Part shown: positions 6,998 through 50,142 of the stretch, one piece after another | Position numbering within the stretch: position 1 is the stretch's first letter | Layout of the letters: each line of letters starts with the position of its first letter | Virus record (IMG/VR): IMGVR_UViG_3300029319_000040 | Span: 1 to 60,885 of that record | Source: a virus | Lineage: Duplodnaviria; Caudoviricetes | Length of the DNA: 60,885 nt | Reading direction: 5' to 3' (one strand) | Notes under the pieces: model-generated | Database searches by the model: none | Told to the model about the DNA's origin: nothing | Seen by the model: the letters and a program-made list of their open reading frames with translations, nothing else | Program-made: the position numbers and the translations under genes

Positions 6998-7147
6998 GAA
7001 AGAAATAACAAATAGACGTAAAGCCTAAATACACAATTCTTTTTTTTCTTCTTTAATGTCTTTAGGGTTCTTCCTAATTTTCTTAAACATCTTTGAAACA
7101 AAAAAACAATTAAAAAAACCAGCAGACGTAAAGGCATTAATTTTTTC
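6998..7147. repeat. ~150-bp imperfect palindrome A (inverted copy of 49992-50142)
   Basis: Inner arms 7035-7065 and 7081-7111 match the reverse complement of 50076-50106 (27/31) and 50029-50059 (28/31). Confidence 0.85.
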
Positions 7148-7215
7148 AGAAGAAAATTGAAAGAATAAAAACAATTCATGCAAACCTTGATTGGAAACTT
7201 AAATAATTACTAAAT

Positions 7216-7482
7216 ATGAAAATAAATGCTTTAGACCTACCGGCATTGTGGTCTGCTCTCAAAGGCAAAGAAGATTTTCAAATGTGTTACGATGAAGCAC
7301 AAACCGCTTGTTTAGATGTACCCGGCTACGTCAACAGTAGTATAGTTCTTATTGCTATTTTTGCCGAAGCACTGTTCTTTATTTTTTTGTTTATATCTAC
7401 GCGGGTAATGTTAAAACATCGTAAAAAGACTCGTAAGGACAATGGAGCCAAGCGAGGGCAGGGCCATAATAGAGAGGCTTGA
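7216..7482 (+). CDS. Small membrane protein
   Basis: One long hydrophobic helix followed by a basic tail. Confidence 0.6.
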   Translation: MKINALDLPALWSALKGKEDFQMCYDEAQTACLDVPGYVNSSIVLIAIFAEALFFIFLFISTRVMLKHRKKTRKDNGAKRGQGHNREA

Positions 7483-7735
7483 CAGCCTCCGAACTAGAAT
7501 GGACCGACAGGATGGAAGAATAGGTGAAATCGTTGGCTACATACGTCAGCCGTATGAAAATACTAGCCGTTTGATGTCGTTAGAAAGCAAAGTAGACGAG
7601 ATACAAAAGGACATACAAGAAATAAAGGCGGGTCCGGTGTACTCACTAGACCGAGCAATAAACAAAAAAATCGCAAAAAGTGGCGGAATTCTTATGATTT
7701 TGCTAATTTTAGCCCAAAGTTTAGCGATGATTTAA
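7442..7735 (+). CDS. Coiled-coil protein with C-terminal membrane anchor
   Basis: Heptad-like core, GGILMILLILAQSLAMI terminus. Confidence 0.75.
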   Translation: MEPSEGRAIIERLDSLRTRMDRQDGRIGEIVGYIRQPYENTSRLMSLESKVDEIQKDIQEIKAGPVYSLDRAINKKIAKSGGILMILLILAQSLAMI

Positions 7736-7760
7736 TAATCAGCGAAAATAGTCGCTTGTT

Positions 7761-9170
7761 ATGGTAGAGCGTAAGCCCCGTCGTTTTCCTTGGTTCACAA
7801 GAGAGGTAACGGCGGAAGAAGAAGAAGATGAGCCACAAGAACGTATTGCTACTAATACTCCACTTAGAGTAGCAGCAGGTATTCCCGATATTATGCGGGA
7901 CACCGAGGTTTTACAAAAAGACAGTAACTTTGACAATGAGTTTGACTTGTACGACAAAATGATTAAATTAGACCCCGAACTCAACGGAGCAGTCCGGGCC
8001 GTAAGCCTGACTGCTAACAATTATGAGATAGATTATTCGCGTGGTAAAAACGGCACAATAAGAAATGCTATCGAAGAACTTGTGCATAAAATTGATTTTG
8101 ATGATTTTCTTATCAACGCTATGCGTTCACTTATGGTATATGGTAACGACATCAACAAATTAGTTGGTAAAGCGGGTACAGGTATTACAGATGTTCAAAG
8201 TCTTCCAGTAAAGCAGATTACTATTGTAGACGAGCGTGGCGGTCTTGAGTCATACTTTGTAGCCACCGAAGACTCTCCAATCATTCGTGCTGTGACATAT
8301 ATGTTACGAGAGGCTACCCTTTACGAGCAAGAGTTCCCTGCCGATGAAATACTACACATTCGTATCGACTATCGCTCTAACTGGTTTACAGATAACAAAG
8401 GTCGTCGAACTTACGGTGTATGGGGCGCATCCAGATTTACGTCTTTGAAGCAACCTATTCGTGCAAAGTATAACACTATCAACAATCGTGTATCTTTGGA
8501 AGATGCGATGACCAAACAATTCATTACAATAGACAAATCTGCTATTGAACACATACAAGACCCACTTGAACAAAAAGAAAGATTACAACACATAATCGAC
8601 GAAGTTATCAAACTTTTCGATGGACTGCGAGGCGACCAGATACCAGTGCTTCCTCACTATGTACAATTACATCATGTAGATTTACAAAACACCATACCGT
8701 CTTCCGCAGACTTCCTAGACACTATCAATGCTGACATCGCAGCAGTTTTACAAGTCCCAAGAGTAGCGGCAGGTCAAGAACGCGGCTCAACCTTTGCTGC
8801 GACCTATAATGCTAACTTGTGGGCTGTACAAGCAATTAGCCGTCTTCAAAAGATTCTTGGCGAAGCAGTACACAAATTGTTTTCTATGCACCTTGATTTA
8901 CTAGGCATCAGTCATAGTATGGGCGATATACCACCAATTAGGTTTGAGGCTATGAATGAAGAGTCACCTCTTGCTATGATGCAAAGAGCGGTGCTTGGTT
9001 ACAATGCTGGTATCATTACACTAAATCAAGCACTAGATATGATTAACTTACCATTGGCTGACAGAGAAGGTGAACAAAGAAAGAAATCTTCAAACAACAG
9101 TCGTGGCATAGGTGACTTGCCTAGAGAGGATTCTCAACCGGGCGCGTCGGATTTGATGAACAATGAGTAA
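7761..9170 (+). CDS. Portal protein
   Basis: 469 aa, first large gene of head module; portal-like segments (LMVYGN, ADEILHIR, GASRF, GIITLNQA). Confidence 0.85.
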   Translation: MVERKPRRFPWFTREVTAEEEEDEPQERIATNTPLRVAAGIPDIMRDTEVLQKDSNFDNEFDLYDKMIKLDPELNGAVRAVSLTANNYEIDYSRGKNGTIRNAIEELVHKIDFDDFLINAMRSLMVYGNDINKLVGKAGTGITDVQSLPVKQITIVDERGGLESYFVATEDSPIIRAVTYMLREATLYEQEFPADEILHIRIDYRSNWFTDNKGRRTYGVWGASRFTSLKQPIRAKYNTINNRVSLEDAMTKQFITIDKSAIEHIQDPLEQKERLQHIIDEVIKLFDGLRGDQIPVLPHYVQLHHVDLQNTIPSSADFLDTINADIAAVLQVPRVAAGQERGSTFAATYNANLWAVQAISRLQKILGEAVHKLFSMHLDLLGISHSMGDIPPIRFEAMNEESPLAMMQRAVLGYNAGIITLNQALDMINLPLADREGEQRKKSSNNSRGIGDLPREDSQPGASDLMNNE

Positions 9171-9516
9171 AAAAAATGGTAGGTCGTTTAACGACAAGAT
9201 GATAGCACGTACTGTCCTACCAGTCATTTATTTGTGGATGGTATCTGCTGGCGCAGTTGTCGCTATGGGTATTTATCAACCTGACATTGTTTTAACTAAT
9301 CTTGATGGTTTTATTGCGTTGATTGCTATTATTGGTGGTGTTGCTGCTCCGGCATTTAACACTCTTATGCGTATGTGGGAATCAGAACAGGCCGCAGAAG
9401 TCGCTGAAATACCAGCAGACTTTGTGCATGAAAGAGAAAGAGAAGTTGAGCAACATCAACATACAATGATTGTAGAGAAACATGAGGCGGGTGTAACCAG
9501 TGGCAAAAAGTCCTGA
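9163..9516 (+). CDS. Two-helix membrane protein
   Basis: Two hydrophobic stretches and a charged C-terminal tail. Confidence 0.8.
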   Translation: MSKKNGRSFNDKMIARTVLPVIYLWMVSAGAVVAMGIYQPDIVLTNLDGFIALIAIIGGVAAPAFNTLMRMWESEQAAEVAEIPADFVHEREREVEQHQHTMIVEKHEAGVTSGKKS

Positions 9517-10945
9517 TGACTTTGATATGCTTGTACGCAAGGCAAAAACTCTTGCAGAGGCCACTGGTCGTTCCGAAGAAGATGTTCTAGCAGACCTAAT
9601 GGATGATGGTGTGCTTAACGAGTCTAATAAAGAAAAACGCGACCTTGTATCTGAACTAAAGGAAGCAGCCGAACTTATCAACACTGTCCAAGCAATCAAC
9701 AAAGAAGTATCTGACAATAAAGTATTGAATGGTAATGGAAACAGTACAAAGGTCGAAGTCGATACTACGCTAGAGGGAGACATAGTAGACCGGGCTATCG
9801 AATCTGTTCAACGCAAGGCTGAAAATATCAAAAAAATACTAATATTGATTTCGCCACTTTTCCTAATACTAGGTGGCGGTAGCCTAGAAATGTTTGGTAT
9901 CACAAACATGGTCGGTGACGATGAGCCTGATGATTACGATGATACCTATTACGAAGTTTGGGGATGCACTGATTACTCAGCAGAAAATTACGACGAGTAT
10001 GCAAATATGGATGATGGTACTTGTTATTATCCTACTTATGGTTGTACTAACGATGCCGCACCTAATTATGACCCCGAAGCCGATATAGATGATGGTTCAT
10101 GTGAGCCAAATCCGCCCCCACCAAGACCCGGTTGTACAGACCCCGAAGCAGAAAACTATGATGAAGATGCACAGGAAGACGACGGCTCTTGTGAATACAA
10201 TGAGCCTGAACCAGAACCAGAACCAGAACCAGAACCGGAGCCTGAGCCTGAACCTGAACCTGAACCAGAAAACAATTGCACAGTAGCCATAACTAATCAT
10301 TATAGAGGTCATGTGCAAGATGATGAAGAACAAGATGCTATTTTACTAGCATTTAGAATAGTCCCTAATGATTGCGACGAAGAAATCTTAGAAATAGATA
10401 TTGATTTGTATTCCCAAGGAAATGATGACGACCCTGAATATACTTACTTTGTTAGTGTCACTGGTGACGAAGTACACGACATATCACACACATTTGATGA
10501 TGTAGATGTAGGTGCTTGGATTCCTAGAATAACTGCATCTATTGATGATGAGATACAAGAAAGAGTTTGGTTTTGGGGAATAGACGTAGAGCAACAAGTT
10601 TGTGAAATAAATCTATATAGTATCAATATAGGAACTAACAATACATCTGCGGTTGTATTTTATGACCTTGATTGCGGCACAGAACAAAATGACCTTGGTG
10701 GTTACAATGTATCTGTACAATTCCTTGTATATGCTGTCAACTCAAGTGATGACCCTATTGAATATAACACATCTTTACATTATATTGAAGGCTATGAAGA
10801 CGATACACATATGCTTCGACTAAGTAATTTTACAAGCAACAATACAACAGTTTATGACTTCTACTGGTATGCTATATGGGAGGATGCTGACGGAGAGCAA
10901 CAATTTATCGAGCGTAGTTGGTTGAATAGAGAGTTAAGTCCTTGA
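9500..10945 (+). CDS. Membrane-anchored acidic surface protein with three GCT(D/N)..A.NYD..A..DDG.C repeats and an (EP)n linker
   Basis: TM helix ILILISPLFLILGGG; three Cys/Asp repeats; EP repeat at ~10202-10270; beta-rich C-terminus. Confidence 0.85.
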   Translation: MAKSPDDFDMLVRKAKTLAEATGRSEEDVLADLMDDGVLNESNKEKRDLVSELKEAAELINTVQAINKEVSDNKVLNGNGNSTKVEVDTTLEGDIVDRAIESVQRKAENIKKILILISPLFLILGGGSLEMFGITNMVGDDEPDDYDDTYYEVWGCTDYSAENYDEYANMDDGTCYYPTYGCTNDAAPNYDPEADIDDGSCEPNPPPPRPGCTDPEAENYDEDAQEDDGSCEYNEPEPEPEPEPEPEPEPEPEPEPENNCTVAITNHYRGHVQDDEEQDAILLAFRIVPNDCDEEILEIDIDLYSQGNDDDPEYTYFVSVTGDEVHDISHTFDDVDVGAWIPRITASIDDEIQERVWFWGIDVEQQVCEINLYSINIGTNNTSAVVFYDLDCGTEQNDLGGYNVSVQFLVYAVNSSDDPIEYNTSLHYIEGYEDDTHMLRLSNFTSNNTTVYDFYWYAIWEDADGEQQFIERSWLNRELSP

Positions 10946-10953
10946 GGTGAAAA

Positions 10954-11385: not shown

Positions 11386-11389
11386 TACC

Positions 11390-13918
11390 ATGCCGGACCC
11401 GAAGCCAAATGAGAGTCGGGACGACTATATGGATAGGTGTATGGGTGATGATAAAATGGTAGAGCAGTTTGGTAATCCTAAACAAAGGGCTGCTGTATGC
11501 AATTCTTATTTTGAAGAGGGTAAAGCAGCATCAGAAGAATACGAAGATTGGGGAGAAAATGCTACGGCAGCAGAATACAAAGGTCGTAGTGTAACACTTA
11601 ACAAACCCTTTAGAACACCTAACGAAAGTAAAAAGTTCGGTGTGTATGTTAAAAATCCTAGTGGTCGCGTAATCATTGTAAGATTTGGCGACCCTAACAT
11701 GGAAATAAAACGCGATGACCCAAAGCGACGTAAGGCATTTCGTGACCGACATAACTGCGATACTGCAACAGATAAAACTACTCCTAGATATTGGTCATGT
11801 AGACAGTGGGAAAGTGGCCGAAGAGTAGAGGCAGAGTTTTCTGTTTGTGCTAGTTGTGAAACACAGGCTGCTTGTGCCGAGGCAGAAAATTGTATGGGTA
11901 ACGCAGAGGCACAAAAAGACCCACGTTCTACACCAGCCCCACCAAAAGATAGAAAGAAAGGCTCTAAGAGAAACAAGCCGGGTTCTGCTAGACCGGGCGG
12001 TAAAATTACTTTTTCAGAAAGTGTTACTAAGTCACTACAAAAGAAAGTAAAAGAACACAACGAAAAATCAGACCGTAAAGTTACACTAGGCAAATTGAAG
12101 GCTGTATATCGTAGAGGTGCTGGTGCTTACTCTACTTCTCACAGACCGGGGGTATCAAGGGCTGCTTGGTCTATGGCAAGAGTCAATGCCTTTCTTACAT
12201 TAGTTAGAAGAGGTAGACCTGCTAATCCTAAATATACGCAAGATAACGACCTTTTACCTTCTAACCATCCTAGAGCATCAGAAGAGTTGAATAATCACTC
12301 CGAAGATTTGGTCGCTATGGGCGGTTGCGATTGTGACTGTGATGATAACGCAATCGCTGAAAGAAACGGAGAAATGTACGATAACCCCGGCGAGGCTATG
12401 GACCGTGCTAAAGAAATGGGCTGTAATAAAATACATACTCACGATATAGAAGGCAAAACTATGTTTATGCCATGCGGCGATATGGAAGAATACCGTGAGA
12501 AAATGAAAGAGGCTTCTTATCATGATAAGAAAAAATATATGGCTTCTGATGAAGATGAATGGTATGATGATGACGAAATCATGGAAATGATGCTAGACAA
12601 CGCAGAAGCAAAAGAGCATTACAATACACCAACTCCGAAATCAGATGAAACTCATAAAGAATACATGGATAGATGTATGGCTATGGGCAACAGCGAAGCA
12701 GCGTGTAAGATAGCGCATGAAGGACATAAATTCAAAGACCAAGATAAACCACATACTAGGTCTGACCACGAAGCAAAACACAAGAAAGACCATGAAGAAG
12801 ATAAGTATGGTTATGCAGAAGAAATCTCTGTTACTATCGATTTAGATGTCTCAGATGTTGTTGCAGTTGTAGAGGCTACTACAAAACAAACTATACTAGA
12901 GATACGTGGAATTGCTTTTCACGAAGGTATGAATAAGAATAAATGGTCCCTAACTCGCGAAGGTGCAGAGATTGTGGTTGAGCAAATGGTGGGAGCAGAT
13001 GTAACACTCAACCATCCCAAAGCCCGTGAGGAAGGGGCGGGTTTTACCCGCAACATGAATGGTGATGTTGACGAAGCCGTTGTCGGTGTAGTCAAACAAG
13101 CATCCATTCGTGACCTTTCCGATGGTCGTTGGGAAGTAACTTATGTGGCTCATGTAATACGCACAGAATTATTTTCTGCTCTTGAATCTGGTCTTTGGAA
13201 CCGTGAAAACTATGGAGTTTCCATAGGAGGTACAGGAATACCAGTATCGTCCTCCGAGGACGGAATTGTGTTCGGTGAAAGGTTCCGATTTGACCATCTA
13301 GCGATAGTACACAAGCCAGCATATCCAAGGGCTAATATCGAATCAGTCAAGCGAATTAAAGCCGAAAAGGTAGAAATGAAAGCATCTGAAATGCTTAAGT
13401 ATGACTCAATACTTGACCAAGAACAACAACAGGTGATTGCTATGACCGATGAAGAAATGAATGACGCTAACAGCGAGATTGAAGCACTTAAGGCTCAACT
13501 TGTTTTAGCAAACGCAAGAGTAAACGAATTTGAGGCCGCAGAAGAAGCCCGCGCAGAAGAAGTAAGAATGGAATTAGTTTCCGAGGCTTCTGAACTAGGC
13601 ATGAGCGGTCATGACGACCTATCCACAGACACACTAAAGAGTCTAATCGCATCTTGGCGCGAATCTCATCCAGACCCGGAGCCAGTAGAAATGGCTCCTG
13701 TTGCAGAACCAGAGGTTGCTTCCGAAGAAGTTATTGCTTCCGAGAAGCCAACTGCTGTGGTTTCTAACTACCTCAACGGCAAACTTGTCGAAACCGATGC
13801 AAAGGCTTACGAAAAGGCATGGAACGCATGGGCTTCCGCTTGGAACAAGACACTTGCTGTTGCAGAGCGTGATTCAATGCGCGCACCAAGTTTTGAAGAA
13901 AGAATGGAGATGATTTAA
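11390..13918 (+). CDS. Multidomain prohead protease/scaffold protein
   Basis: Lies between portal and capsid; C-terminal half has protease-like TLNHP, GVSIG and DHLAIVHKPAY, then a coiled-coil scaffold; N-terminal half is a string of small Cys/His modules. Confidence 0.8.
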   Translation: MPDPKPNESRDDYMDRCMGDDKMVEQFGNPKQRAAVCNSYFEEGKAASEEYEDWGENATAAEYKGRSVTLNKPFRTPNESKKFGVYVKNPSGRVIIVRFGDPNMEIKRDDPKRRKAFRDRHNCDTATDKTTPRYWSCRQWESGRRVEAEFSVCASCETQAACAEAENCMGNAEAQKDPRSTPAPPKDRKKGSKRNKPGSARPGGKITFSESVTKSLQKKVKEHNEKSDRKVTLGKLKAVYRRGAGAYSTSHRPGVSRAAWSMARVNAFLTLVRRGRPANPKYTQDNDLLPSNHPRASEELNNHSEDLVAMGGCDCDCDDNAIAERNGEMYDNPGEAMDRAKEMGCNKIHTHDIEGKTMFMPCGDMEEYREKMKEASYHDKKKYMASDEDEWYDDDEIMEMMLDNAEAKEHYNTPTPKSDETHKEYMDRCMAMGNSEAACKIAHEGHKFKDQDKPHTRSDHEAKHKKDHEEDKYGYAEEISVTIDLDVSDVVAVVEATTKQTILEIRGIAFHEGMNKNKWSLTREGAEIVVEQMVGADVTLNHPKAREEGAGFTRNMNGDVDEAVVGVVKQASIRDLSDGRWEVTYVAHVIRTELFSALESGLWNRENYGVSIGGTGIPVSSSEDGIVFGERFRFDHLAIVHKPAYPRANIESVKRIKAEKVEMKASEMLKYDSILDQEQQQVIAMTDEEMNDANSEIEALKAQLVLANARVNEFEAAEEARAEEVRMELVSEASELGMSGHDDLSTDTLKSLIASWRESHPDPEPVEMAPVAEPEVASEEVIASEKPTAVVSNYLNGKLVETDAKAYEKAWNAWASAWNKTLAVAERDSMRAPSFEERMEMI
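13442..13918 (+). CDS. Nested in-frame scaffolding protein (internal start), 158 aa
   Basis: AGGTGA RBS 5 nt before in-frame ATG 13442; TATA-like CTTAAGTA at ~13394; acidic coiled-coil product MTDEEMND... Confidence 0.65.
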   Translation: MTDEEMNDANSEIEALKAQLVLANARVNEFEAAEEARAEEVRMELVSEASELGMSGHDDLSTDTLKSLIASWRESHPDPEPVEMAPVAEPEVASEEVIASEKPTAVVSNYLNGKLVETDAKAYEKAWNAWASAWNKTLAVAERDSMRAPSFEERMEMI

Positions 13919-13919
13919 G

Positions 13920-14342: not shown

Positions 14343-14346
14343 GGAG

Positions 14347-15267: not shown

Positions 15268-15305
15268 TCTTAACAACGGGTTGATAATACTAGGACGGTG
15301 GAAAA

Positions 15306-40508: not shown

Positions 40509-41314
40509 TCCAATAACCCCACTTGGAAAACCATGTCTCCATTAGGGAATACGAACAGAATACGGGTTCCTTGTCCGTATTCACTGAAATCTAGGAAATG
40601 TAATGTAACATCTCCCCCATAATGTTTGAGTACCGAATCGATACCGCCTTCAATAGTTACCTCGCCAGCATCTAACATTTGGTCGGGTAGAGAAAAGATA
40701 GTTTCAGTAGCACCTTTCAATTCAGAGCCTACTTTGACGGACACATAATCAGCCTCATAAGAAAAGGTAAAGCGATTAGTCTTCTGTCCATTGATAGCAT
40801 CGCACCGTAGAGCCTCAAACAATTCAGATGAGTCAAGTGTGATAGAGAACTTAGGTAGTAGCCATTCACCCGTACTTTGCACTAAATACGCCCCATCTTC
40901 TCTCAGTTGGTCGAATCTATTTAGGCTTTTCTCAGCCCAAACAGATATTGCGTCAGGACAGTTAGCAAAGGCTGGAGCGTTGAGACTACTTGTTAGGGTC
41001 GTCTTCTTGTTCCTTGATTTTATCTCCAACTTATCGTTAGCCCATGACAAAGATACTTCTGTCCCATGATACGGTAGAATTCCTAGTACCGCGTCGATAG
41101 ATGCGATTGGTATATTGACCACCGGACTTTCATTAGGTGTAGAGAAACGCGAAAGGGAAGTAACACCATCACGCACTATGTTGATTGTCTCAATACAATC
41201 ACCAATGGGACGAAGTAGAGTAGATTCTACTTGGTCTTGCTTCTTGCCAGCAACCGTTTGTGGCCGCTTAGTTAGCGTAAGAAGCCTAGTCAGCGCATCG
41301 TTTCTAACATTCAT
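40505..41314 (-). CDS. Probable sliding clamp (PCNA-like)
   Basis: 269 aa, two-domain alpha/beta pattern, in operon with RFC and PolB; no diagnostic motif. Confidence 0.55.
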   Translation of the reverse strand: MNVRNDALTRLLTLTKRPQTVAGKKQDQVESTLLRPIGDCIETINIVRDGVTSLSRFSTPNESPVVNIPIASIDAVLGILPYHGTEVSLSWANDKLEIKSRNKKTTLTSSLNAPAFANCPDAISVWAEKSLNRFDQLREDGAYLVQSTGEWLLPKFSITLDSSELFEALRCDAINGQKTNRFTFSYEADYVSVKVGSELKGATETIFSLPDQMLDAGEVTIEGGIDSVLKHYGGDVTLHFLDFSEYGQGTRILFVFPNGDMVFQVGLLE

Positions 41315-41318
41315 TCAA

Positions 41319-42299
41319 TCACTCCCAATTCAAGAAAGGTAGACCAGACCAATTTACTTTGCCATCTTTGACAGATAGAATAGTGTGTGTCTCGCCTAGA
41401 TGTTCCATGTTGTGACCCTTCATTTCTTCAATGATTGCCTTTACTGCCCATTCACCTTCGGCTAAGGATTTGTCTCCCTTAACACCAGCCGCAGGGTCAG
41501 CCTTTTTCATGTATCTAGTTAGGAATATTTGTTGTGAGAAACAACGCATAGTTCCCTTCTCCCATTCAGGGCGTTCACCGACACTCATTAGGACTTTGCC
41601 ACCAGAGCCGTTATCCACATACTCTTGAATAGGTTTCAAGTGGAATGTGAAGAACACCTTCGGTACATCTAAACCATGAATACGTTGAATAGTATCTCGG
41701 AACAGTTTGTTACGAATGCGCCATTCTGCTTGGTTGAATCTATCTCCATCTTCGGGATTGACCGGATTCTTAGAGCGATTCTGCAATACATAAGTCATAG
41801 CCTGTTCGCACCACTTGAGGAAAGTAGAGCCACCATCAAAGATGATACCAGCATATTCTTCTCCAGCCTTAACACGTTCTGCTACAATATTAGTAAACCA
41901 CGATACCTTATCGATAAGAGCCGTATAGTTCACAGAGTTATCGTCATTGAAGATAGAATCATCTAACTCATCAAAGAGAGGAAGCACTATGATATTGTCC
42001 TTTCCGGGGTACAGATAATCAACGGTCTGCTTGGCAGAATTGTCCACATCGAAGATAGCGACTTTCTTTCCAGCCTCAATCTCCGCTTTTAGAAGGTCAA
42101 GTGCGAGTCCAGTTTTAGCAGTATTCTCACGGCCAACAAGAGCCATACGAACAGGACGATACTTTGCTTGGTTGTTGTCAAACAAGTTATTGTAGTAGTC
42201 TGCATCGTAAGCCGTCTTCATGGCTGGATTAGGAGTAGCGGCAGGGGCCGCAGTTGCGGTTACACTACGACCTTTGTATTCTGATTGGCCCCAACTCAT
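41319..42299 (-). CDS. RecA-fold (Sak4/AAA_24-like) ATPase
   Basis: Walker A GRENTAKT, AIFDVD, Walker B IIFDG, FTFH. Confidence 0.75.
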   Translation of the reverse strand: MSWGQSEYKGRSVTATAAPAATPNPAMKTAYDADYYNNLFDNNQAKYRPVRMALVGRENTAKTGLALDLLKAEIEAGKKVAIFDVDNSAKQTVDYLYPGKDNIIVLPLFDELDDSIFNDDNSVNYTALIDKVSWFTNIVAERVKAGEEYAGIIFDGGSTFLKWCEQAMTYVLQNRSKNPVNPEDGDRFNQAEWRIRNKLFRDTIQRIHGLDVPKVFFTFHLKPIQEYVDNGSGGKVLMSVGERPEWEKGTMRCFSQQIFLTRYMKKADPAAGVKGDKSLAEGEWAVKAIIEEMKGHNMEHLGETHTILSVKDGKVNWSGLPFLNWE

Positions 42300-43501
42300 G
42301 CGTCCCACCCATCATCCACAGAATCTACTGGTACGTCTGCCATAGGAGCAATCGCATCGAAGGCCCACCAACCATTTACAGATAGTCGGTACTCATCATC
42401 TTGAGTCTTCCAAGGTTGTGCAATCACAAGTACCTTAGTACCAACGGCGAAGTCAATCATACTTTCTTGGGAAGCAGGGATATAGATGTCCACCACTGGA
42501 GCCATAGAAGTAATATCCAAGTCAGCAACTACTAGATTGAAGCCACCGTTGTCGCGAGGTTCAATACTAATAACTTCTGTAAGTACACCAATGAGTCTAT
42601 CCCACCATCCATCAGTCCCATGATTAGCCTCATAGAACGGACCAACGGCATCAAGATTCTTCAATAGGTCATCGCCAAGCATACTGCCCATCAGACCACC
42701 ATCTTCGCTACGGAAGGGCGGTAGAGGGAATTCAGATGCTAGTGAATCGTCGCGGTTGAACACTGATACTCCAGCCTTAGCATAACCAACACCGTTGCGA
42801 CCCATACGAACCGCATAAGTTCCGGGTACAAAGGTAGGAGGTGCATCTTCGGCAACACTACCGGAAGCCTTGATTGTTACAGGGCCGTCAGCAGTAGCGA
42901 ATAACATAGTTCTCTCTAATTCCTTAGTAGGTCTAGCGGAGCCGTACTTGAAGTTAGCATCACCCGATGGGAAAGTCGGAGACTTGTTATCCCATACTAT
43001 GTAGTAGTAAGTAGACTCATCAAGTTGCTTGATATTCTTAGGCAACTCTGTAACTGAATCTTCATCGTAGTCTGCTTCAAAAGCAACTTTGTTTCGTAGA
43101 GATGGGTTGATAGCACGACTATAAGTACCGTCGTAATTATCGGTAAAGATTACTACTTTGCCCTGTGTTACTAAGGATTCTCGTACATCTTCACTAGCCA
43201 TCTTTAGAGTGTTGTCCATCTTACGGTATAGCAATTGGCCCCAATCTTTGTATCTAGGCACACTGATAAACATACCCTTTAGGGATTCAGCACCACTTCT
43301 TTTTAACTTAGCACTTTCGGATGCCAATTGTCTTGCTGCAACTCGTAGAGCAAACACTCCGCACTCTTCGTCATTCTTTCCAGCGTTTCGCCATGCTGAA
43401 CCCTGTTCTTCAAGAACAGATTCCATTCTCGTTTTGAGAACAGATACATCAACACCAACATTCGTTGCCACATTCTTCATCATATCTTCGGTTGTAGTCA
43501 T
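42296..43501 (-). CDS. Putative single-stranded DNA-binding (RPA/OB-fold) protein
   Basis: OB-like C-terminal strands, acidic-aromatic tail DSVDDGWDA, adjacent to recombinase-like ATPase. Confidence 0.5.
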   Translation of the reverse strand: MTTTEDMMKNVATNVGVDVSVLKTRMESVLEEQGSAWRNAGKNDEECGVFALRVAARQLASESAKLKRSGAESLKGMFISVPRYKDWGQLLYRKMDNTLKMASEDVRESLVTQGKVVIFTDNYDGTYSRAINPSLRNKVAFEADYDEDSVTELPKNIKQLDESTYYYIVWDNKSPTFPSGDANFKYGSARPTKELERTMLFATADGPVTIKASGSVAEDAPPTFVPGTYAVRMGRNGVGYAKAGVSVFNRDDSLASEFPLPPFRSEDGGLMGSMLGDDLLKNLDAVGPFYEANHGTDGWWDRLIGVLTEVISIEPRDNGGFNLVVADLDITSMAPVVDIYIPASQESMIDFAVGTKVLVIAQPWKTQDDEYRLSVNGWWAFDAIAPMADVPVDSVDDGWDA

Positions 43502-43553
43502 TCTATCACTTCCTGTGTATTTTCACCCAAATCGCTTAAGCATATAAATATTC

Positions 43554-44447
43554 TCATTCTACACACTCCCTTACAAAATTGGCGAGTATAAGGTCCGACG
43601 ATATGCCGGAAATGAGGTCGCGTTGTGCATTTATCAACGCATTGACGATTAGTAGTTTCGATTCTTGTTTTGCATCAGATTCTACCATGTAGTCAAAGAT
43701 GCCTCGTAGAGTATCTGCTAAGGGTTGCCCTTTGATAATCTTCAATGCGCCATCGAAGGACTTCTCTCGTACTGCTACACGAAGGAACTTAGCGTAGTCC
43801 ACAACGGGAGTATCTAAGGAAAACAAGAACTTGTCTTTGTCTGCACCATAATTAACATATGCTTGTAAGAAATTTATAGCAGAGCGAGCATCGCTATGAT
43901 GTTTTGCTATACGCTGAATAGTATCGTCCATCCTAACGAAACCAGCGACGTTTTCTTTGAGTGTTATCTCCCGTAAAATCCTTGCTATATCCCCTTTATA
44001 GTAAGGGCGGAAATGTATTACTTTGCATCGCGATTGTAGCCAAGGAGAAACCTTAGCGAGATTGTTACAAGTCAATATGAAATAACCATGAGCATTCTCC
44101 ATAACTCCTTTGAGAGCGGATTGGGCCGCATCAGTCAATTGGTCTGCCTCATCAAGTAGGAAAATTTGTTTGTCATTACCTGTTCTCGTTCTAGGGATTA
44201 GTTCTTCTTCGATGAACCCAATACCCCTCTCATTCCTAGTAGAAGCATTGAACACATGAAGTTGCATCCCAAACTCATTAGCCAAAACGCGAGCAATAGT
44301 AGTTTTCCCTGTACCCGGTTCTTGAGAATGAAACAAGAAATTCTGCGATACATAACCCATATTCTCAAATTGGGCTACAATATCATCACGACCTATCACA
44401 TCTTTGAATGTGGTGGGCCTATGCTTCTGTGACCATATCTCAGTCAT
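43554..44447 (-). CDS. rfcS: Replication factor C small subunit (clamp loader)
   Basis: WSQKHRP, PGTGKTT, NAS..RG, LLDEAD, LQSRC. Confidence 0.93.
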   Translation of the reverse strand: MTEIWSQKHRPTTFKDVIGRDDIVAQFENMGYVSQNFLFHSQEPGTGKTTIARVLANEFGMQLHVFNASTRNERGIGFIEEELIPRTRTGNDKQIFLLDEADQLTDAAQSALKGVMENAHGYFILTCNNLAKVSPWLQSRCKVIHFRPYYKGDIARILREITLKENVAGFVRMDDTIQRIAKHHSDARSAINFLQAYVNYGADKDKFLFSLDTPVVDYAKFLRVAVREKSFDGALKIIKGQPLADTLRGIFDYMVESDAKQESKLLIVNALINAQRDLISGISSDLILANFVRECVE

Positions 44448-44695
44448 TATTCACCACCACAAATCCTGTGTTCTTCTGGTAGATGCTTAACTCGCTTTTC
44501 ACGCATACCTCTCAAAATATCCTTAATGTTTTTTAGTGCCGTGTTATATCTTTTGACTGCTACACTATCACCCATCGGTACTAAACCATCTTCTGCCAAT
44601 TCTTGAGTGCTAGTATAATCATAGCCCTCTTCATCACCAATCAACATATTCAGTATTTCCCATTCAACGTGTTTCACACTCTTTGCTCTAATCAT
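44447..44695 (-). CDS. Hypothetical protein
   Basis: 82-aa ORF downstream of a motif/TATA promoter. Confidence 0.75.
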   Translation of the reverse strand: MIRAKSVKHVEWEILNMLIGDEEGYDYTSTQELAEDGLVPMGDSVAVKRYNTALKNIKDILRGMREKRVKHLPEEHRICGGE

Positions 44696-44734
44696 TCATC
44701 ATTCCCCCTTACATATTGTACTCGACCAGTAAGG

Positions 44735-44767
44735 TTATAAACATTACGGTTAGCAGTAAGAGTGTGT
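44735..44767 (-). promoter_or_regulatory. 16-bp motif + TATA promoter
   Basis: + strand AGCAGTAAGAGTGTGT at 44752-44767, TTATA 17 nt to its left. Confidence 0.8.
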
Positions 44768-44771
44768 CGCC

Positions 44772-45170
44772 TCATGAGCGAATACAATGAAGACAAACTT
44801 GTGATTCTGGTGGGAAAACTCGGTTTCGGCCACATACTGAACACTTCTCCATCTTACTCTTTTCTTTTGGTGTTGCTACGCTAGGACTTCTTGTATATGT
44901 GATGTCGTCCTTACTGTGTATCAACTCCCTATTAATATCATATATCGCGTGTTTGGATTTAACTCCTACGGCGTTTTCTACCTTTTCACTCCCTACTATT
45001 ATGACCTGTGTATTTTTAGCAAGTAAGGAAGACAATGTGTGTGGCGAAGGAACTACTCTAACAGATTTAGTCTGTGTTAGATGTGTAGCCATCTTCTCCT
45101 TCGTCATCGGACCATGCTCCCAAAGCAGGTCTACAATCAACCTACGGATTCTTCGGTTGTTAGCACCCAT
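44772..45170 (-). CDS. Winged-helix protein with C-terminal Zn ribbon
   Basis: LLWEHGPMT...SPHTLSSLL; CSVC..CLHC. Confidence 0.75.
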   Translation of the reverse strand: MGANNRRIRRLIVDLLWEHGPMTKEKMATHLTQTKSVRVVPSPHTLSSLLAKNTQVIIVGSEKVENAVGVKSKHAIYDINRELIHSKDDITYTRSPSVATPKEKSKMEKCSVCGRNRVFPPESQVCLHCIRS

Positions 45171-45198
45171 TGACTTATGAATATATCAAACACCTTTA

Positions 45199-45492
45199 TT
45201 AATCATCCCCCAAAGAAAGCCACATCGATGACTCTACAAACGCTTCCGCGTGTCTATGCCTTCTATATTCTTGCCAATCCCACTGATTAGGTTTTAGAGC
45301 AGTAGTCTTGATTTCAGCCTCTACTGGCCTTTGGATATTTTCACTGTGGGTAAATTCTATATTGGCAATCTTGTTGATTATTTTGGCAAGCGAATTCATC
45401 ATATATTCTGCAATATTTGGACTTACAAACCAAACGAATACAACACCAATCAAAAGAGGTATGTCAAAAAGATAAGGGTTACTCATACCCAA
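45199..45492 (-). CDS. Small membrane protein
   Basis: N-terminal hydrophobic helix. Confidence 0.65.
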   Translation of the reverse strand: MGMSNPYLFDIPLLIGVVFVWFVSPNIAEYMMNSLAKIINKIANIEFTHSENIQRPVEAEIKTTALKPNQWDWQEYRRHRHAEAFVESSMWLSLGDD

Positions 45493-46157
45493 CCCACCAC
45501 CTTTTCTTTTGTCTTCTTTAGATTCTTGACAGTATCTCCACCATCCCTAACTTCGTTACGAACCTCGGCACTACCATCTATGATTTCCCTCCAATACAAA
45601 TCATTAGAACGAAACGGCTTAGGAGGCAACTGCACCTTAGACTTCTTCTTAGGCCAAACCACACGTTTGCCACTAGGCTTGATAGCATAAGCAACAATCG
45701 CGTAAATGTATTTATCTGCTACCTCATACTTACATTCATTCAGTAGTCTATGTAAATTTATATCATCCGGCCTATTCGCCTCTACAAACGAGAGAAGTAG
45801 GGGAACGGGAACGGATTGTATTTGTTGGTACACAAAGTTTCTATCTCGGACTCTAAACACACATTGTATCGCTCTAATATGGTCTTCTTTATCTTTGTTA
45901 AGAGAATCATCTACTATGACAAAATCAGAACTCTTGTCCGTAAGTTTCGGAGGCTTTTCAGTAATTATTACAAGACGATAGGAGATTAGGTCGCGCCATT
46001 CTAAAGCATCTTTCTCCGTGAATTTATCTGAATGGAGAATGAGTGTAAGATTAGCCACGCTCGGAGAAGTATTGATTTCTTTGAACATCTCGACGTAGTT
46101 GCCTTCTTTGTACGGTCTTTCGTCGGCACTATAAATCACTACTCCCAATAAGGCCAC
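45483..46157 (-). CDS. Hypothetical protein
   Basis: 224-aa coupled ORF in replication arm. Confidence 0.75.
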   Translation of the reverse strand: MALLGVVIYSADERPYKEGNYVEMFKEINTSPSVANLTLILHSDKFTEKDALEWRDLISYRLVIITEKPPKLTDKSSDFVIVDDSLNKDKEDHIRAIQCVFRVRDRNFVYQQIQSVPVPLLLSFVEANRPDDINLHRLLNECKYEVADKYIYAIVAYAIKPSGKRVVWPKKKSKVQLPPKPFRSNDLYWREIIDGSAEVRNEVRDGGDTVKNLKKTKEKVVGWV

Positions 46158-46402
46158 CCCTCTTCTATGATGTGGTTTTTGATACGGTCCATTTGTTTCC
46201 TACTGAGATTCCAAACCCTCATGACTTCTGCACTACTGATAGAGTAATGACCACAATACCATTTCAATCCGTAGGTATCTAGTATAGGTATGAGTCCAGT
46301 CTCATCCATAGCAGAGAACAACTTAGGCAAGTCGTCCTTGTAGATAGCCCTATTCACCAACTGTCGTGCGTGTGTTCTCCATTTGATAGGCTCTCCAGTC
46401 AT
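46139..46402 (-). CDS. Hypothetical protein
   Basis: ATG start coupled to upstream stop (TAATG). Confidence 0.7.
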   Translation of the reverse strand: MTGEPIKWRTHARQLVNRAIYKDDLPKLFSAMDETGLIPILDTYGLKWYCGHYSISSAEVMRVWNLSRKQMDRIKNHIIEEGWPYWE

Positions 46403-47028
46403 TACAAATCCTCCCATTCTACATCTATGACAGTATGTGTAGGTGCTTTCAAAGATGCCATATGCAACTCTATTTTGTCTAATAAGTCGGGATGAGGTTC
46501 AAGAGTATTTACTAAGTTACGCATGAAATCATTCATACGATTCTCGGCAAGAAGCAATTGAGAATCTACCCCAATCTCCTTCTTCAATTGACCTACAAGT
46601 TTCAAAGAGGTATTTGCTTGAGCAACTAACTTTGTAGCATCAGCGACCCACTCTGATGATATACCATCTTGTGCCTTTAGCACTTCTAACTCATCCAGCC
46701 ATCCGACCAAACGAAGGACAAGACCTTCTGCCATATCTAAGGTATTGATTGACTCTTCTCGCATCTTCTCTACATGGGATGCTTCTTCGGGGTCGAACTC
46801 TAAGTGATTATCCATATGATTGTCACAAGTACCTTCGGGCCAACCATATCTTACTTCTACTATATTAGGTCCGATTTCCCTATTGCTCAATTGAATTTCC
46901 AATTGTCTTTTACCAGCCAAATCACAAAAGGGACAAGGAGAAGATTTGAGAACCCATCTAAGAGTTTCAATGACTATCGGTTCACCCGACTGTGCTAGTC
47001 GTTCTTCTATCTCCCGTTGAGTTTTCAT
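46402..47028 (-). CDS. Zn-binding HTH/coiled-coil protein (possible terminase small subunit)
   Basis: CPFC...HMDNH then helical coiled-coil; function inferred only. Confidence 0.45.
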   Translation of the reverse strand: MKTQREIEERLAQSGEPIVIETLRWVLKSSPCPFCDLAGKRQLEIQLSNREIGPNIVEVRYGWPEGTCDNHMDNHLEFDPEEASHVEKMREESINTLDMAEGLVLRLVGWLDELEVLKAQDGISSEWVADATKLVAQANTSLKLVGQLKKEIGVDSQLLLAENRMNDFMRNLVNTLEPHPDLLDKIELHMASLKAPTHTVIDVEWEDL

Positions 47029-47095
47029 TTAGTTCTCTCCCACTTACAGTGCAAACATTCCCTATGCTTTGAAATCATTCCACAACATTGACATC

Positions 47096-47362
47096 TCATT
47101 CTTCTTCCCCCCTTACAACATCCCAAATGTAAACAGTACCTTGCATACCACTTTTGTAAAATCTAGCATCCTTCTTTAGCCATCTCGCGGCCTGATTGAT
47201 AGTAACACCAGCCCTTGATGAACAAATAGATTTACCGTTCTTGAAAGTAGCGTAACGTAAAACTTGCCTCAAGGTGCAAGGTCCGTTATGCAATAAATAT
47301 TCGTACATAGCATCCACCGCCCAAGGCGTTGTTCTTTTAGCCCTTGAAGTTCTAGGACTCAT
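47096..47362 (-). CDS. Winged-helix protein
   Basis: YLLHNGPCT...INQAARWLKKDARF...WDVV. Confidence 0.7.
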   Translation of the reverse strand: MSPRTSRAKRTTPWAVDAMYEYLLHNGPCTLRQVLRYATFKNGKSICSSRAGVTINQAARWLKKDARFYKSGMQGTVYIWDVVRGEEE

Positions 47363-48693
47363 TCTTGTTCACCCCAAGGATTAGGCCCGCGCTCATTTGT
47401 AACAGGTCCGATACGACACATAACACCTCGTCGCCCTCTACCTTTCTTAGCCGAAGGCTCATACTCTCTATACCAAGGCTGCCCTTGTAGATTCTCAATA
47501 ATCCAACGCTTTGCTGATTGATAGTCACCAGCAGTAACCATACGAGAAACCTCTTTGATAAGTGTGGACTTTGTAATATCTTGCATCCAAAACGCATCTT
47601 TCATGAGTAGTGTGTCTGCATCCATAACTCTCCTTCTCATCATCAAGGACTTGGCTAGAATATCTTCTAGTCGCTCATCCATAGTTACAAGCAACGGTTC
47701 ACCCCCACGATAATTTGGACTCATCATGTGGTAGCCTATTGCTATACGCCTAAAAAGGTCTGCCTCAAACGAGCGTACCTTTGGTGATTCCAACCATGCT
47801 AAGATAGAGTCATCAAACAAAACACCGCTAGGAGGATTAGCCACCGCATCATCTAATCTAGTTCGTAACCATCCTTTGATTGCTATGGCCTTTTCTGCCA
47901 ACGATACCCTTTCCTCGGTAGTCATGTTAGATTGAGCGTGTTGCGCTCTTTTGAAAGCCAACTCTTTCTCATCACTCATCTCAATATCTATGATAAAGAA
48001 ACGACGGTCAAGACCAGAATCTAACTCAAATCTAGCAGGTTGCGTACCAGCCCAAACAGTGTAGCGAGTAGTGTACTGAACCCAACCAGCCTTCATACCT
48101 TTCTGCACTCTACCATTATCTAATGATGTAAGAAGTTGGTTTTTCATATCTAGGCTATGGTCTTTCTTGGAGGCATCAGACATAGATGAGAACTCTTCAA
48201 AACCAAGGAACCCACCGCATAGTTCTCTAGCGATAGGTCTGCCCATGATGTCGCCATCTTCATTCACTGAACCAAACATACCTGCTTCTGTTATACTGTT
48301 CGGTCCCATCATAGTTCTAAATCCTTCTCCCAAATCAGCGTTGAAATTATGAAGGAGTCCAGTGCCTTCTGCTAGGAACATAAGAATCAAAACCGATTTA
48401 CCAGAACCCTTTGCACCACGAAGCATGATGTGGATTCTTGTATCAGGTAGTTGCGACATCGGAGTGTAGAACGGTATGTTACTATGTCTCAAAGGACAAG
48501 AGGTAATAGTAAAATCATTCTCTGCATCTACTAATGGAGATTCGGGGTCGAAGTCACATCTACTGCATTTGTTTAGTGCATTGAAGATATGCGCGCCAAC
48601 AGAACAAACGAATATAGGTATCTTATCATCTACACCAACATAGTGATTTCTTTTAGCGAAATCCTTTACCTCTTCTATTATATCGAAACTCAT
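47359..48693 (-). CDS. mcm: MCM-like AAA+ helicase (N-terminally short)
   Basis: HIMLRGAKGSGKS, TEAGMFGS, GGFLGFEEF, DNGRV, AGTQP, LDRRF. Confidence 0.8.
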   Translation of the reverse strand: MSFDIIEEVKDFAKRNHYVGVDDKIPIFVCSVGAHIFNALNKCSRCDFDPESPLVDAENDFTITSCPLRHSNIPFYTPMSQLPDTRIHIMLRGAKGSGKSVLILMFLAEGTGLLHNFNADLGEGFRTMMGPNSITEAGMFGSVNEDGDIMGRPIARELCGGFLGFEEFSSMSDASKKDHSLDMKNQLLTSLDNGRVQKGMKAGWVQYTTRYTVWAGTQPARFELDSGLDRRFFIIDIEMSDEKELAFKRAQHAQSNMTTEERVSLAEKAIAIKGWLRTRLDDAVANPPSGVLFDDSILAWLESPKVRSFEADLFRRIAIGYHMMSPNYRGGEPLLVTMDERLEDILAKSLMMRRRVMDADTLLMKDAFWMQDITKSTLIKEVSRMVTAGDYQSAKRWIIENLQGQPWYREYEPSAKKGRGRRGVMCRIGPVTNERGPNPWGEQE

Positions 48694-49502
48694 ATGTGAT
48701 AGCCCCCACTACTGTCATTCTCATCAAAGAAAGGAGGATTCAATCTGCCGTCGGTTTCAAAGGAGTTCAATATACCTCTGAACTCATTTACTGTTGTAGA
48801 ATCAGAATCAACCTTTAGTCCCAAACTATCTGAATAGAAATCTATTAGATGTTGAACGGCCACTTCATCTACGCCCATATTGTCACTCTTAACACAAATC
48901 AACATAGACAAATAACCATTACCACTATCTCTATCTGTTAGTTTAGCGTAAAGTTCACAGAATATCCAACAAGGGGTCATCAGTCCTAGTTCGCTATTCT
49001 GCACCCCACCTTTCATATCTTTGTCGTGGAAATCATACATAATCAAATCAGAGCCACCGATTGCCTTTTCACTATGGGCAACAGAAGTAAGCATGAATAA
49101 CTGCTCTACACCTAATTCCAAAAACAAATTGACTACATCTCTAGCCATAGGATAACACCACAACCAATTAGTAGTATCTGTTGGAGTATTAGGTTCAGGC
49201 CAATTCGTCAATCTAAGGAGGTAAATTCTATCCCCCTCTTCATCTTCTAATTCGTACACAAGCCAGCAAGGTTCTAACAAATCTGGAATAGCGTTGAAAG
49301 GCTCGACAGATTGATACCTTGAGTAAATCCTAGCGACGGGTTCTCTACCACCGATAACACTCATGGAAGATACCAAAGAAGCATGACCTGACTCTCCCTG
49401 CATAAATATAATCAGAGCAGAAGGTTTTGTTTCATGCGCCTTATCTGTCCATATAACATCAATATCTTCGTAACTCTCCATCTCAGGCATATCAATCACC
49501 AC
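48690..49502 (-). CDS. PAC2 (proteasome assembly chaperone)-like protein
   Basis: DVVNLFLELGVEQLFMLTS and DEVAVQHLI...LGLKVD resemble PAC2-family patterns; 270 aa. Confidence 0.5.
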   Translation of the reverse strand: MVIDMPEMESYEDIDVIWTDKAHETKPSALIIFMQGESGHASLVSSMSVIGGREPVARIYSRYQSVEPFNAIPDLLEPCWLVYELEDEEGDRIYLLRLTNWPEPNTPTDTTNWLWCYPMARDVVNLFLELGVEQLFMLTSVAHSEKAIGGSDLIMYDFHDKDMKGGVQNSELGLMTPCWIFCELYAKLTDRDSGNGYLSMLICVKSDNMGVDEVAVQHLIDFYSDSLGLKVDSDSTTVNEFRGILNSFETDGRLNPPFFDENDSSGGYHI

Positions 49503-49974
49503 CGTCTTTACCCAAAACCTGTTCGGATATTAATAACTGTATAGAATCTGCCATACTCTTAGGTAATTGTTCTAAGGTAGATACTCGGTGTTTAGTCGAG
49601 TCTTCATACCATACTGCCATTTCTTCAATGCTTACTGCTTGATATACAGGTATAGGTGTAGTGTAACGAGAATAAGTTTTCATCGTACTACCTTCTGGTA
49701 TTGTTCTTCTGCTAGATTTTTCTTCTCCTATCTTACGAAAGAATTTATTCTTAGACAGTATTTGAGTTACTTGATTAGTAGTGTAAGACCCTTGGTTTTT
49801 TCCATAAACATAAGTCTCCCCTTTGTTAGTCTTTCTAGTTTTAGTCGATTCTAGTTCTTTCAAGTGTTCTATAATCTCATGAGTATTAGCACTCCCCACT
49901 TCATTTAAGAAGTTCCAAATTTTCATTTTCAACTTACTGTGTCTACATCTTCTTCTATTTGCCATTCTTTTCAC
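49492..49974 (-). CDS. Winged-helix protein
   Basis: FLNEVGSANTHEII...TTNQVTQILSKNKFFRKIG. Confidence 0.7.
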   Translation of the reverse strand: MKRMANRRRCRHSKLKMKIWNFLNEVGSANTHEIIEHLKELESTKTRKTNKGETYVYGKNQGSYTTNQVTQILSKNKFFRKIGEEKSSRRTIPEGSTMKTYSRYTTPIPVYQAVSIEEMAVWYEDSTKHRVSTLEQLPKSMADSIQLLISEQVLGKDGGD

Positions 49975-49991
49975 TCTCCTAAATTAATTCA

Positions 49992-50142
49992 GAAATAATT
50001 AATCGCTACACCAATCCCCGATTCTACTAATTCTTTTTTTGTTTCATAGATGTTTCAGAGAATAATCCTCTTTTTCTAAACACACTAAAGACGAATAAAA
50101 AGAATTCGTAAAAACGGTGGGCTGGTAGCCATTATTTATTTC
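49992..50142. repeat. ~150-bp imperfect palindrome B (inverted copy of 6998-7147)
   Basis: Left arm GAAATAATTAATCGCTAC...AATTCTTTTT... mirrors the right arm; inner arms match palindrome A. Confidence 0.85.

Follow-up and report, generated by a model that had tools for sequence, protein, structure and literature searches.

The stretch of DNA analyzed here (the window, 60,885 nt) is IMG/VR record IMGVR_UViG_3300029319_000040, positions 1-60,885, a virus of the Caudoviricetes. It carries two related noncoding elements of about 150 bp, here called A and B. Element A lies where two transcription arms diverge (nuclease and terminase genes on one side, portal and structural genes on the other), and element B lies within the - strand arm, between small early-type genes and an operon for a small winged-helix-like (wHTH) protein, a PAC2-like protein and an MCM-like helicase. 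An earlier reading of the letters alone (the sequence-only reading) had placed the elements at these two points; both positions were confirmed, and that of B is constant in most relatives. We consider it somewhat more probable than otherwise, judging from sequence, that A and B are putative multi-subsite binding regions for a shared regulator that coordinates the non-early operons. The copies are homologous and conserved, number exactly two per genome, keep a fixed geometry to TATA-like boxes and evolve in concert. Several functions had been offered in the sequence-only reading, and a master regulatory switch is the best supported of them because of the fixed distance to TATA-like boxes, the conservation by sequence rather than by pairing, and the co-variation of the two copies within genomes.

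Similarity and Anatomy of the Two Elements

The elements and their parts are as follows.

6998-7147, + strand: element A, the portal-side copy; 150 bp, between the diverging arms
6998-7034, + strand: outer-left segment of A; a conserved A-rich end (GAAAGAAATAA), then a GC-richer stretch that varies among close relatives (mean pairwise difference 0.23-0.32)
7035-7065, + strand: inner-left arm of A; identical at 27/31 positions to the reverse complement of 50076-50106, and conserved in close relatives
7066-7080, no strand: center of A, 15 bp; conserved in the window's clade, variable in length and sequence across the family
7081-7111, + strand: inner-right arm of A; its reverse complement is identical at 28/31 positions to 50029-50059
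7112-7147, + strand: outer-right segment of A; ends in ATTAATTTTTTC (family consensus CGtTTTATTnTTTC)
7167-7176, + strand: flank motif AAAAACAATT, 20 nt outside A; belongs to the 10-mer class that the inner arms contain
6969-6978, - strand: mirror flank motif AAAAACAATA, 20 nt outside the left end of A, towards the nuclease gene; a 9/10 mirror copy
49992-50142, - strand: element B, the helicase-side copy; 151 bp, its - strand reading having the polarity of A on the + strand
50076-50106, - strand: arm of B homologous to the inner-left arm of A; T-runs immediately behind the stop codon of the gene upstream
50060-50075, no strand: center of B, 16 bp
50029-50059, - strand: arm of B homologous to the inner-right arm of A
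49992-50028, - strand: promoter-proximal outer segment of B; ends in GATTAATTATTTC

The sequence-only reading had described A and B as imperfect palindromes and as inverted copies of each other. Its coordinates, the lengths of both centers and both arm matches proved exact. In an inverted-repeat search, the arms are the longest (36 nt, 89%) and third longest (31 nt, 87%) of 161 inverted pairs. The local alignment of A with the reverse complement of B scores 43; dinucleotide-preserving shuffles score 11.0 +/- 1.7 with a maximum of 20, and none of 2000 reached 43. Each element is also the top-scoring 150-bp tile for the other in the window, the next, unrelated tiles scoring 19 and 17. The outer spacers were said to differ between the copies, and they do: the outer segments are identical at just 9/36 and 15/36 positions, while the arms are 87-89% alike. 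GC content is 26% in A and 32% in B.

The palindromic description holds for B, whose self-reverse-complement score of 45 was reached by 0/1000 shuffles (13 +/- 2.8). It does not hold for A taken alone, which scores 17 against 16.3 +/- 3.7 (406/1000 shuffles) and whose arms match each other at 19/31 positions; A is a degenerate palindrome solely through its homology to B and to the elements of relatives. The inverted orientation of the copies is real as well, yet it merely reflects the opposite directions of the downstream operons, since A on the + strand and the reverse complement of B share polarity.

The window has five occurrences of the 10-mer AAAAASAATT against 1.0 expected, a count reached by 0/100 shuffles. 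Two sites are in A, one is 20 nt outside A and two are in B, and there are none elsewhere in the window. With the flank motifs included, the symmetric unit at A spans approximately 6969-7176 (about 210 bp).

Conservation in Related Viruses

Searches of IMG/VR with the portal and the helicase returned 95 and 115 relatives, respectively, and 80 loci of each were used. Elements were sought with an iterated nhmmer profile, and misses were re-examined by covariance-model search. The sequence-only reading had proposed looking for the same paired element in relatives, and it was found at 72/80 portal loci and 70/80 helicase loci, so that 142/160 loci keep the elements at syntenic positions. Fifteen of the 18 missing loci have too little upstream DNA. 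Two others (L145 and L159) yielded diverged copies in the covariance-model search (E 6e-6 and 3e-5), and the same search gave no element at L064. The profile finds exactly two places in the window, and a sequence-only model finds exactly two in each of 5/5 near-complete relatives. The portal-side copy is constantly flanked by the portal module on one side and the diverging nuclease gene on the other, and the helicase-side copy lies ahead of the wHTH-like, PAC2-like and helicase genes or, in a few lineages, directly ahead of the PAC2-like gene.

The core of the element is kept across relatives whose portals are merely 56-60% identical. Among close relatives, the inner arms, the center and the promoter flanks differ by 0.01-0.11, coding DNA mostly by 0.05-0.2, and the outer GC-richer stretches by 0.20-0.32. 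Portal-side elements reach 194 bp. The most conserved 19-base pattern (GCAGTANAGCGNTTTATTNTTT) is present in 45 IMG/VR stretches. In 596 billion bases of cellular genomes it has 4 exact matches, all bacterial, where about 4 are estimated by chance; no archaeal match and no link to a host came from that search.

Read towards the downstream gene, the family consensus starts with an A-rich end (AAAAnAATAAACG) and an outer segment of higher GC content in which ACTGC or GCAGT is frequent. Next come an inner arm (TAATTCTTnATTTCTTCAATAGTnTGTT), a variable center and the mirrored inner arm (CTTTGAAGAAATAAAAnAAATAA), then an outer segment with GCAGTAnAGCG and a T-rich end, TTTATTnTTTC. Among the aligned loci L081-L150, the left outer motif stands in either orientation at one position (alignment columns ~19-24), as GCAGT in at least 5 portal-side and at least 17 helicase-side elements and as ACTGC in at least 15 and at least 20, and the right outer motif is nearly always GCAGT. 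In the clade to which the window belongs, the outer motifs show drift.

These data also dispose of the idea that the resemblance is a chance product of AT-rich intergenic DNA, or that A and B are a mobile miniature inverted-repeat element. Low GC content and runs of T and A would suit such an origin, but the shuffles, the family-wide synteny and the restriction to merely two copies per genome, always in the same two places, refute it, and we give it practically no credence.

Run X1, from a possible source sample, contains a 150-nt record over 50026-50175 that has 13 differences and a depth of 8, compared with ~14 for its neighbors, and its assembly graph breaks at both inner arms of B. We read this as a second strain variant of B co-occurring in the X1 sample.

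Geometry Relative to Core Promoters

The spacing between the element and the next gene is narrowly kept on three sides. From the element end to the next ATG there are 73-74 nt in 21/37 distinct nuclease-side flanks, 67-78 nt in 29/43 portal-side flanks and 53-66 nt in 36/48 helicase-side flanks. Within 119 distinct upstream stretches, 95 of the 144 regular-expression matches to TATA-like heptamers fall at -31 to -29 from the ATG, and none falls from -27 to -16. Counted by flank, 73/128 carry a TATA-like box that precedes the ATG by 28-33 nt. All three gene-facing sides also show an A-rich AATW motif, with its start at +12 or within +17 to +22 counted outward from the element. Given the kept spacing and the fixed place of the TATA-like boxes, the elements appear, on three of four sides, to sit directly ahead of core promoters. 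An archaeal TATA box is centered ~26-27 nt before the transcription start. TATA-like heptamers at -31 to -29 therefore fit archaeal promoter geometry, which implies that the mRNAs of these operons would begin at or very near the ATG.

On the nuclease side of the window, the following box stands where it does in relatives.

6953-6946, - strand: TATA-like TTTATTAA, starting 30 nt before the ATG at 6923

Because of this exact 30-nt spacing, the true start of the nuclease gene is probably the ATG at 6923 rather than the listed TTG at 6932. On the B side, the gap is shorter in the window's clade, and the end of the element, ATTAATTA, starts 29 nt before the GTG at 49974; ATTAATTA is probably the TATA box in this clade. 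The fourth side, the distal end of B, abuts the stop codon of gene 50142-51011, and the T-runs of this distal half may end early transcription.

A different promoter-like unit of ~64 nt was observed upstream of small - strand genes, at 44731-44766, 51939-52002, 53521-53584, 54751-54804, 56144-56207, 57266-57329, 58156-58219 and 58941-59004. On the - strand it reads CACACTCTTACTGCT, ~15 nt, a TATA-like box, ~25 nt and AAGGAG; the 15-mer CACACTCTTACTGCT has 13 matches with at most 3 mismatches against 2.0 expected. The unit contains a GCAGTA core that is also present in the outer arms of relatives' elements. An early-promoter-like core (CTCTTACTG) was found at 9/160 of the relatives' loci, without clustering.

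Concerted Evolution of the Two Copies

Six genomes hold both copies and were used as the test set. Within a genome the two copies share an identity of 0.60-0.70 (mean 0.66). Portal-side and helicase-side copies compared across genomes have a mean identity of 0.54, and orthologous copies 0.55 and 0.58. The same-genome partner is the best match in 6/6 rows and 6/6 columns, and of 720 permutations only the true pairing reaches the observed sum. Lineage-specific variants of the inner arm are common to both copies of a genome. In the window, the outer segments of the copies are unrelated while the arms are 87-89% alike, which disfavors recent gene conversion of the whole element; judged from sequence, selection for a common binding specificity appears to fit better.

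Gene Layout and Candidate Binding Proteins

The genes that bear on the argument are listed here.

3555-5111, - strand: terminase large subunit, after the nuclease gene in the leftward arm
5445-6932, - strand: Mre11-like DNA repair exonuclease (phrog_704, E 8e-63), first gene of the leftward arm
7216-9170, + strand: start of the rightward arm (two small open reading frames and the portal)
7761-9170, + strand: portal gene, in the rightward arm after the two small reading frames
37728-39944, - strand: family B DNA polymerase
47359-48693, - strand: MCM-like AAA+ helicase, a fold-level match
48690-49502, - strand: PAC2-like protein, a lead only
49492-49974, - strand: small wHTH protein, first gene after B, fast-evolving
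50142-51011, - strand: 289-aa protein of no Pfam or PHROGs family, its stop codon adjoining B

The - strand arm extends from 6932 downwards, past the genome end, as far as 34.5 kb, in the order nuclease, terminase, an iteron-rich noncoding region, small early-type genes and replication genes; the + strand arm, from 7216 to 34.5 kb, holds the structural genes. Both elements fall in intergenic DNA: A separates the - strand nuclease gene from the + strand reading frame starting at 7216, and B separates the stop codon of 50142-51011 from the first codon of 49492-49974. Further replisome and repair genes encode an RFC-like AAA+ protein, a RadA/AAA_24-like ATPase, a PD-(D/E)XK nuclease and an ERCC4-HhH nuclease.

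The record begins and ends in an exact 98-nt direct repeat (bases 1-98 equal 60787-60884), and contigs of runs X1 and X2 cross the genome end into the start (joint 60884 to 60781); it is thus a closed or terminally redundant genome of ~60.8 kb. The virus is a tailed virus with an archaeal-type replisome and a complete genome. Its gene set matches that given for magroviruses in the text of PMC5434244, and on this comparison of gene content it appears magrovirus-like. The runs that hold the sequence are all metagenomes, all of them marine except one from a biofilter. A tblastn search with the portal against 50,697 phage records gave no match.

The three labels given to the operon after B in the sequence-only reading fared differently. 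Sequence searches with the helicase against solved structures, using the single protein or a 27-row profile, gave no match. A model built from 27 homologues (pLDDT 75.4) has MCM chains in all of its best 50 Foldseek rows (best E 2.4e-8), so the MCM label stands at the level of fold. The PAC2 label is kept as a lead (29/30 atlas matches, cosine 0.93). Genes 47359-48693, 48690-49502 and 50142-51011 have no family in Pfam or PHROGs. The wHTH label receives weak fold-level support together with a match to Pfam DUF3860 (E 2.3e-6). A sequence search with this protein against solved structures gave no match, and its model (pLDDT 83.5) has weak fold matches, the best to 2od5 (E 0.07), a putative nucleic-acid-binding protein from a marine metagenome, followed by PadR-like LmrR, MecI, forkhead and RTP chains. 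In most lineages the gene after B encodes 110-185 aa with a conserved N-terminal pattern. The wHTH protein diverges much faster than the helicase (33% versus 83% identity to the relative at locus L084), and a profile search finds paralogues in the window at 52903-53313, 47099-47368 and 44775-45185, all on the - strand (E 4e-6, 1e-3 and 1e-3, respectively). Element similarity follows wHTH similarity after allowing for MCM (partial r 0.41; 0/500 label permutations), and the converse partial r, of element against MCM similarity, is 0.54; gene adjacency (linkage) alone could give both correlations.

Two observations concern other parts of the genome. Among the early genes, 56214-57251 (- strand) encodes ArdC-N and zincin-like metallopeptidase domains of the anti-restriction type (Pfam E 3e-35 and 2e-25). 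A perfect 25-nt inverted repeat, 11571-11595 and 42259-42283, lies inside two unrelated genes; because its 24 nt at 42259 are missing from X3 and X8 contigs, the repeat at 42259 looks like a short insertion copied from the 11571-11595 site.

Proposed Function and Points Against It

In the arrangement that we favor, A and B would be paralogous copies of an upstream control region that the family conserves and that combines dyad symmetry with several subsites. The inverted inner arms, the outer motifs and the repeated A-tract plus AATT sites would be bound by a virus-encoded, probably oligomeric, sequence-specific protein; the best candidates are the rapidly diverging winged-helix protein whose gene comes first after B, and the paralogues of that protein. 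Through such binding the replication and morphogenesis operons would be switched together, on or off, after the early genes, and the T-runs in the distal half of B probably halt transcription from the early block as well. That a protein binds the elements, which protein it may be and in which direction it regulates are matters that we infer. As expected of operators, the elements hold a fixed position relative to the core promoter, their repeated and dyad-symmetric subsites are conserved by sequence, and different promoters of one genome have lineage-specific variants in common.

Several points weigh against a regulatory role of this kind. The portal-side flank in the window's clade has a degenerate box (TTGATTGG) and no clean TATA-like sequence at -30. 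The distal half of B faces the 3' end of a gene, yet is as conserved and symmetric as the rest, so a purely promoter-centered account falls short. At 150-210 bp the elements are large for an archaeal operator or upstream activating site. Fixed promoter geometry is also compatible with an origin, because those of SV40 and herpes simplex virus sit between promoters, and the concerted evolution could stem from gene conversion. The wHTH gene is absent from its usual place in L090, L128/9, L132/3, L147/8 and L157, and the relative G001 lacks it after the helicase-side element, a distant homologue lying 4.5 kb upstream. RNA runs were sought among the runs holding the sequence, and none was listed.

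Alternative Explanations

The sequence-only reading had also suggested that A and B are twin replication origins or helicase-loading sites. On this account, which we hold to be unlikely though well short of negligible, they would be origins or MCM-loading sites that possibly double as promoter control regions, as happens in polyomavirus and herpes simplex virus; a model in which a viral initiator binds the inverted arms and loads two helicase rings head to head is unlikely to the same degree. The position of B directly upstream of an operon whose helicase has an MCM fold agrees with it, as does the dyad symmetry of most copies (z > 3 in 44/56 helicase-side and 28/50 portal-side elements). The copies vary together within genomes in the way that origins and their initiators do, element similarity follows that of MCM, and the herpes simplex virus origins described in a passage of PMC10541914, OriL between ul29 and ul30 and the paired OriS copies, offer an analogy. 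A search of 37 open reading frames (covering the portal but otherwise not the structural genes at 9-34 kb) found no Orc1/Cdc6 or Rep family, so another origin binder would be needed. The check for inflections in strand composition gave a divided answer: GC skew changes from -0.18 to +0.09 at A, where the change coincides with the switch of gene strand, and does not change at B (-0.18 versus -0.21). A switch beyond that of gene direction, as an origin should produce, was thus not found. In 200-bp duplex stability A ranks fourth least stable and the neighborhood of B sixth, yet the three least stable regions lie elsewhere, in fields of iterons. The iteron TTTTTTGTMY has 26 copies against 1.6 expected, all at 15-580, 1539-1665 and 60572-60827, often 10-12 bp apart; they fill the large noncoding region around the genome end and lie on both sides of gene 970-1440, within the shorter of the two arcs that separate A and B. 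In G001 a field of a different iteron (~19 copies of CTTTTGTAAC at 54.5-55.5 kb) occupies the same relative place between the two elements. In five relatives searched for TTTTTTGTMY, one had 3 copies, no commoner than the reversed control. The iteron fields are more classical candidates for an origin or packaging site than A and B, whose center is variable in length without a distinct AT-rich unwinding element and whose strict spacing to TATA-like boxes an origin does not require. Somewhat more doubtful again, and argued from analogy, is a dual purpose like that of the herpes simplex virus origins or the SV40 control region, in which the winged-helix protein would recognize the arms and load a head-to-head MCM pair at each of the two sites, and the same complex would time the operons. 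If true, this would define, for the first time, the origin architecture of a virus-encoded MCM in an uncultured tailed virus of archaea and would set up a functional parallel between archaeal tailed viruses and herpesviruses.

It is improbable that a host factor (clusters of TBP/TFB, a chromatin protein or a host regulator) binds the elements and that gene conversion accounts for the similarity within genomes. The subsites are rich in A/T tracts and resemble TFB-recognition elements (BRE) and TATA boxes, the tracts recur at ~37 bp and ~10 bp (a descriptive observation, as the sequences are related), and the core is conserved while portals diverge. Lineage-specific variants in both copies nevertheless fit a genome-specific factor better, the four cellular matches to GCAGTANAGCGNTTTATTNTTT include no archaeal one and are about the number estimated for chance, and the unrelated outer segments run contrary to recent conversion of whole elements. 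A function in folded nucleic acid, be it a cruciform, a hairpin RNA or a bidirectional terminator alone, is very improbable. Element B does form a full-length hairpin as DNA (-20.7 kcal/mol, z -4.09, matched by 0/200 shuffles), a gene ends at its edge, and T-runs in both orientations could stop archaeal RNA polymerase. The fold of A, which transcription enters from neither side, is no better than that of shuffles (z +1.17; 181/200 fold equally well), and 14/50 portal-side elements have a palindrome z < 2. The whole window had 0 matches in an Rfam gathering search. Complementarity between the two arms of one element does not exceed that between arms of different elements (0.493 versus 0.477; own higher in 67/106), and with this lack of arm-to-arm covariation the symmetry is best taken as a property of consensus sites, as expected for protein binding, rather than of a maintained helix. 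Least probable of these, to the point of being hardly credible, is that A and B are sites at which site-specific recombination flips the DNA between them. Two related copies in inverted orientation speak for it, but gene direction explains the orientation, and the longest exact run common to the copies is 13 nt. No integrase, invertase or transposase family of Pfam was found in the 37 reading frames scanned, in keeping with the remark in the sequence-only reading that no recombinase was recognized. The window and 5/5 relatives have one relative arrangement, and contigs from four runs of four studies (X1, X2, X3 and X8, over 40886-60885) show no strand-changing joint at B, although contigs can miss rare forms. 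The proposed inversion of the 43-kb segment is therefore unsupported.

Relation to Known Systems and Significance

Lambdoid phages have two multi-subsite operator regions, OL and OR (~80 bp), bound by a virus-encoded dimeric helix-turn-helix regulator. The likeness lies in two related operator regions with several subsites at two control points of one viral genome, in an orientation that follows the controlled operons, and in operator and regulator specificities that drift together between relatives; in the window the helix-turn-helix binder is a candidate. In contrast to OL and OR, the elements here are 150-210 bp long, stand ahead of archaeal TATA-type promoters, head replication and morphogenesis operons rather than early ones, and are 17.8 or 43 kb apart with no regulator gene between them. 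In the archaeal virus SSV1, F55 binds short direct repeats that overlap core promoters at several promoters. A viral DNA-binding protein, putative in our case, at repeated sites of more than one promoter is thus common to both, whereas the present elements are long and dyad-symmetric and precede the TATA-like boxes.

Other parallels are with origins. The oriL of herpes simplex virus is 144 bp long. Like oriL and oriS, A and B are related palindromic elements in several copies, between divergent genes, with one beside replication genes; unlike them, they have no distinct AT-rich center, occur together with separate iteron fields, and belong to an archaeal host and machinery. That OriL lies between ul29 and ul30, and that the two OriS copies lie in inverted repeats, is stated in a passage of PMC10541914. 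The SV40 control region has a dyad-symmetric core between diverging transcription units and works with one protein that serves in helicase loading as well as in transcription control. The likeness to A is a dyad-symmetric core between two diverging units, but the SV40 region is single-copy and its pentanucleotide sites are unrelated to the motifs here. Archaeal origin recognition boxes (ORB and mini-ORB) likewise involve inverted repeats associated with MCM loading, a likeness drawn by description; here the 37 scanned reading frames contain no Orc1/Cdc6, and the center is 15-16 bp instead of long and AT-rich.

In the magrovirus literature searched, no paper also mentions "promoter". The main texts of PMC5434244, PMC11706807 and PMC10160649 mention no palindrome, inverted repeat, promoter or origin of replication, and in the text of PMC5434244 "origin" refers to evolutionary origin. 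No cis-regulatory DNA is thus described for this virus group in the main texts searched.

These viruses are known from metagenomes alone, and their gene content resembles that of the magroviruses of abundant marine group II archaea. The paired control regions, if they act as proposed, would give a concrete handle on how such viruses are regulated. The promoters of three major operons are located by position, and the winged-helix paralogues form a short list of candidate binders that can be expressed and assayed on synthetic DNA without culture of the host. The two elements also provide a clean example of noncoding sequences evolving in concert within one viral genome.

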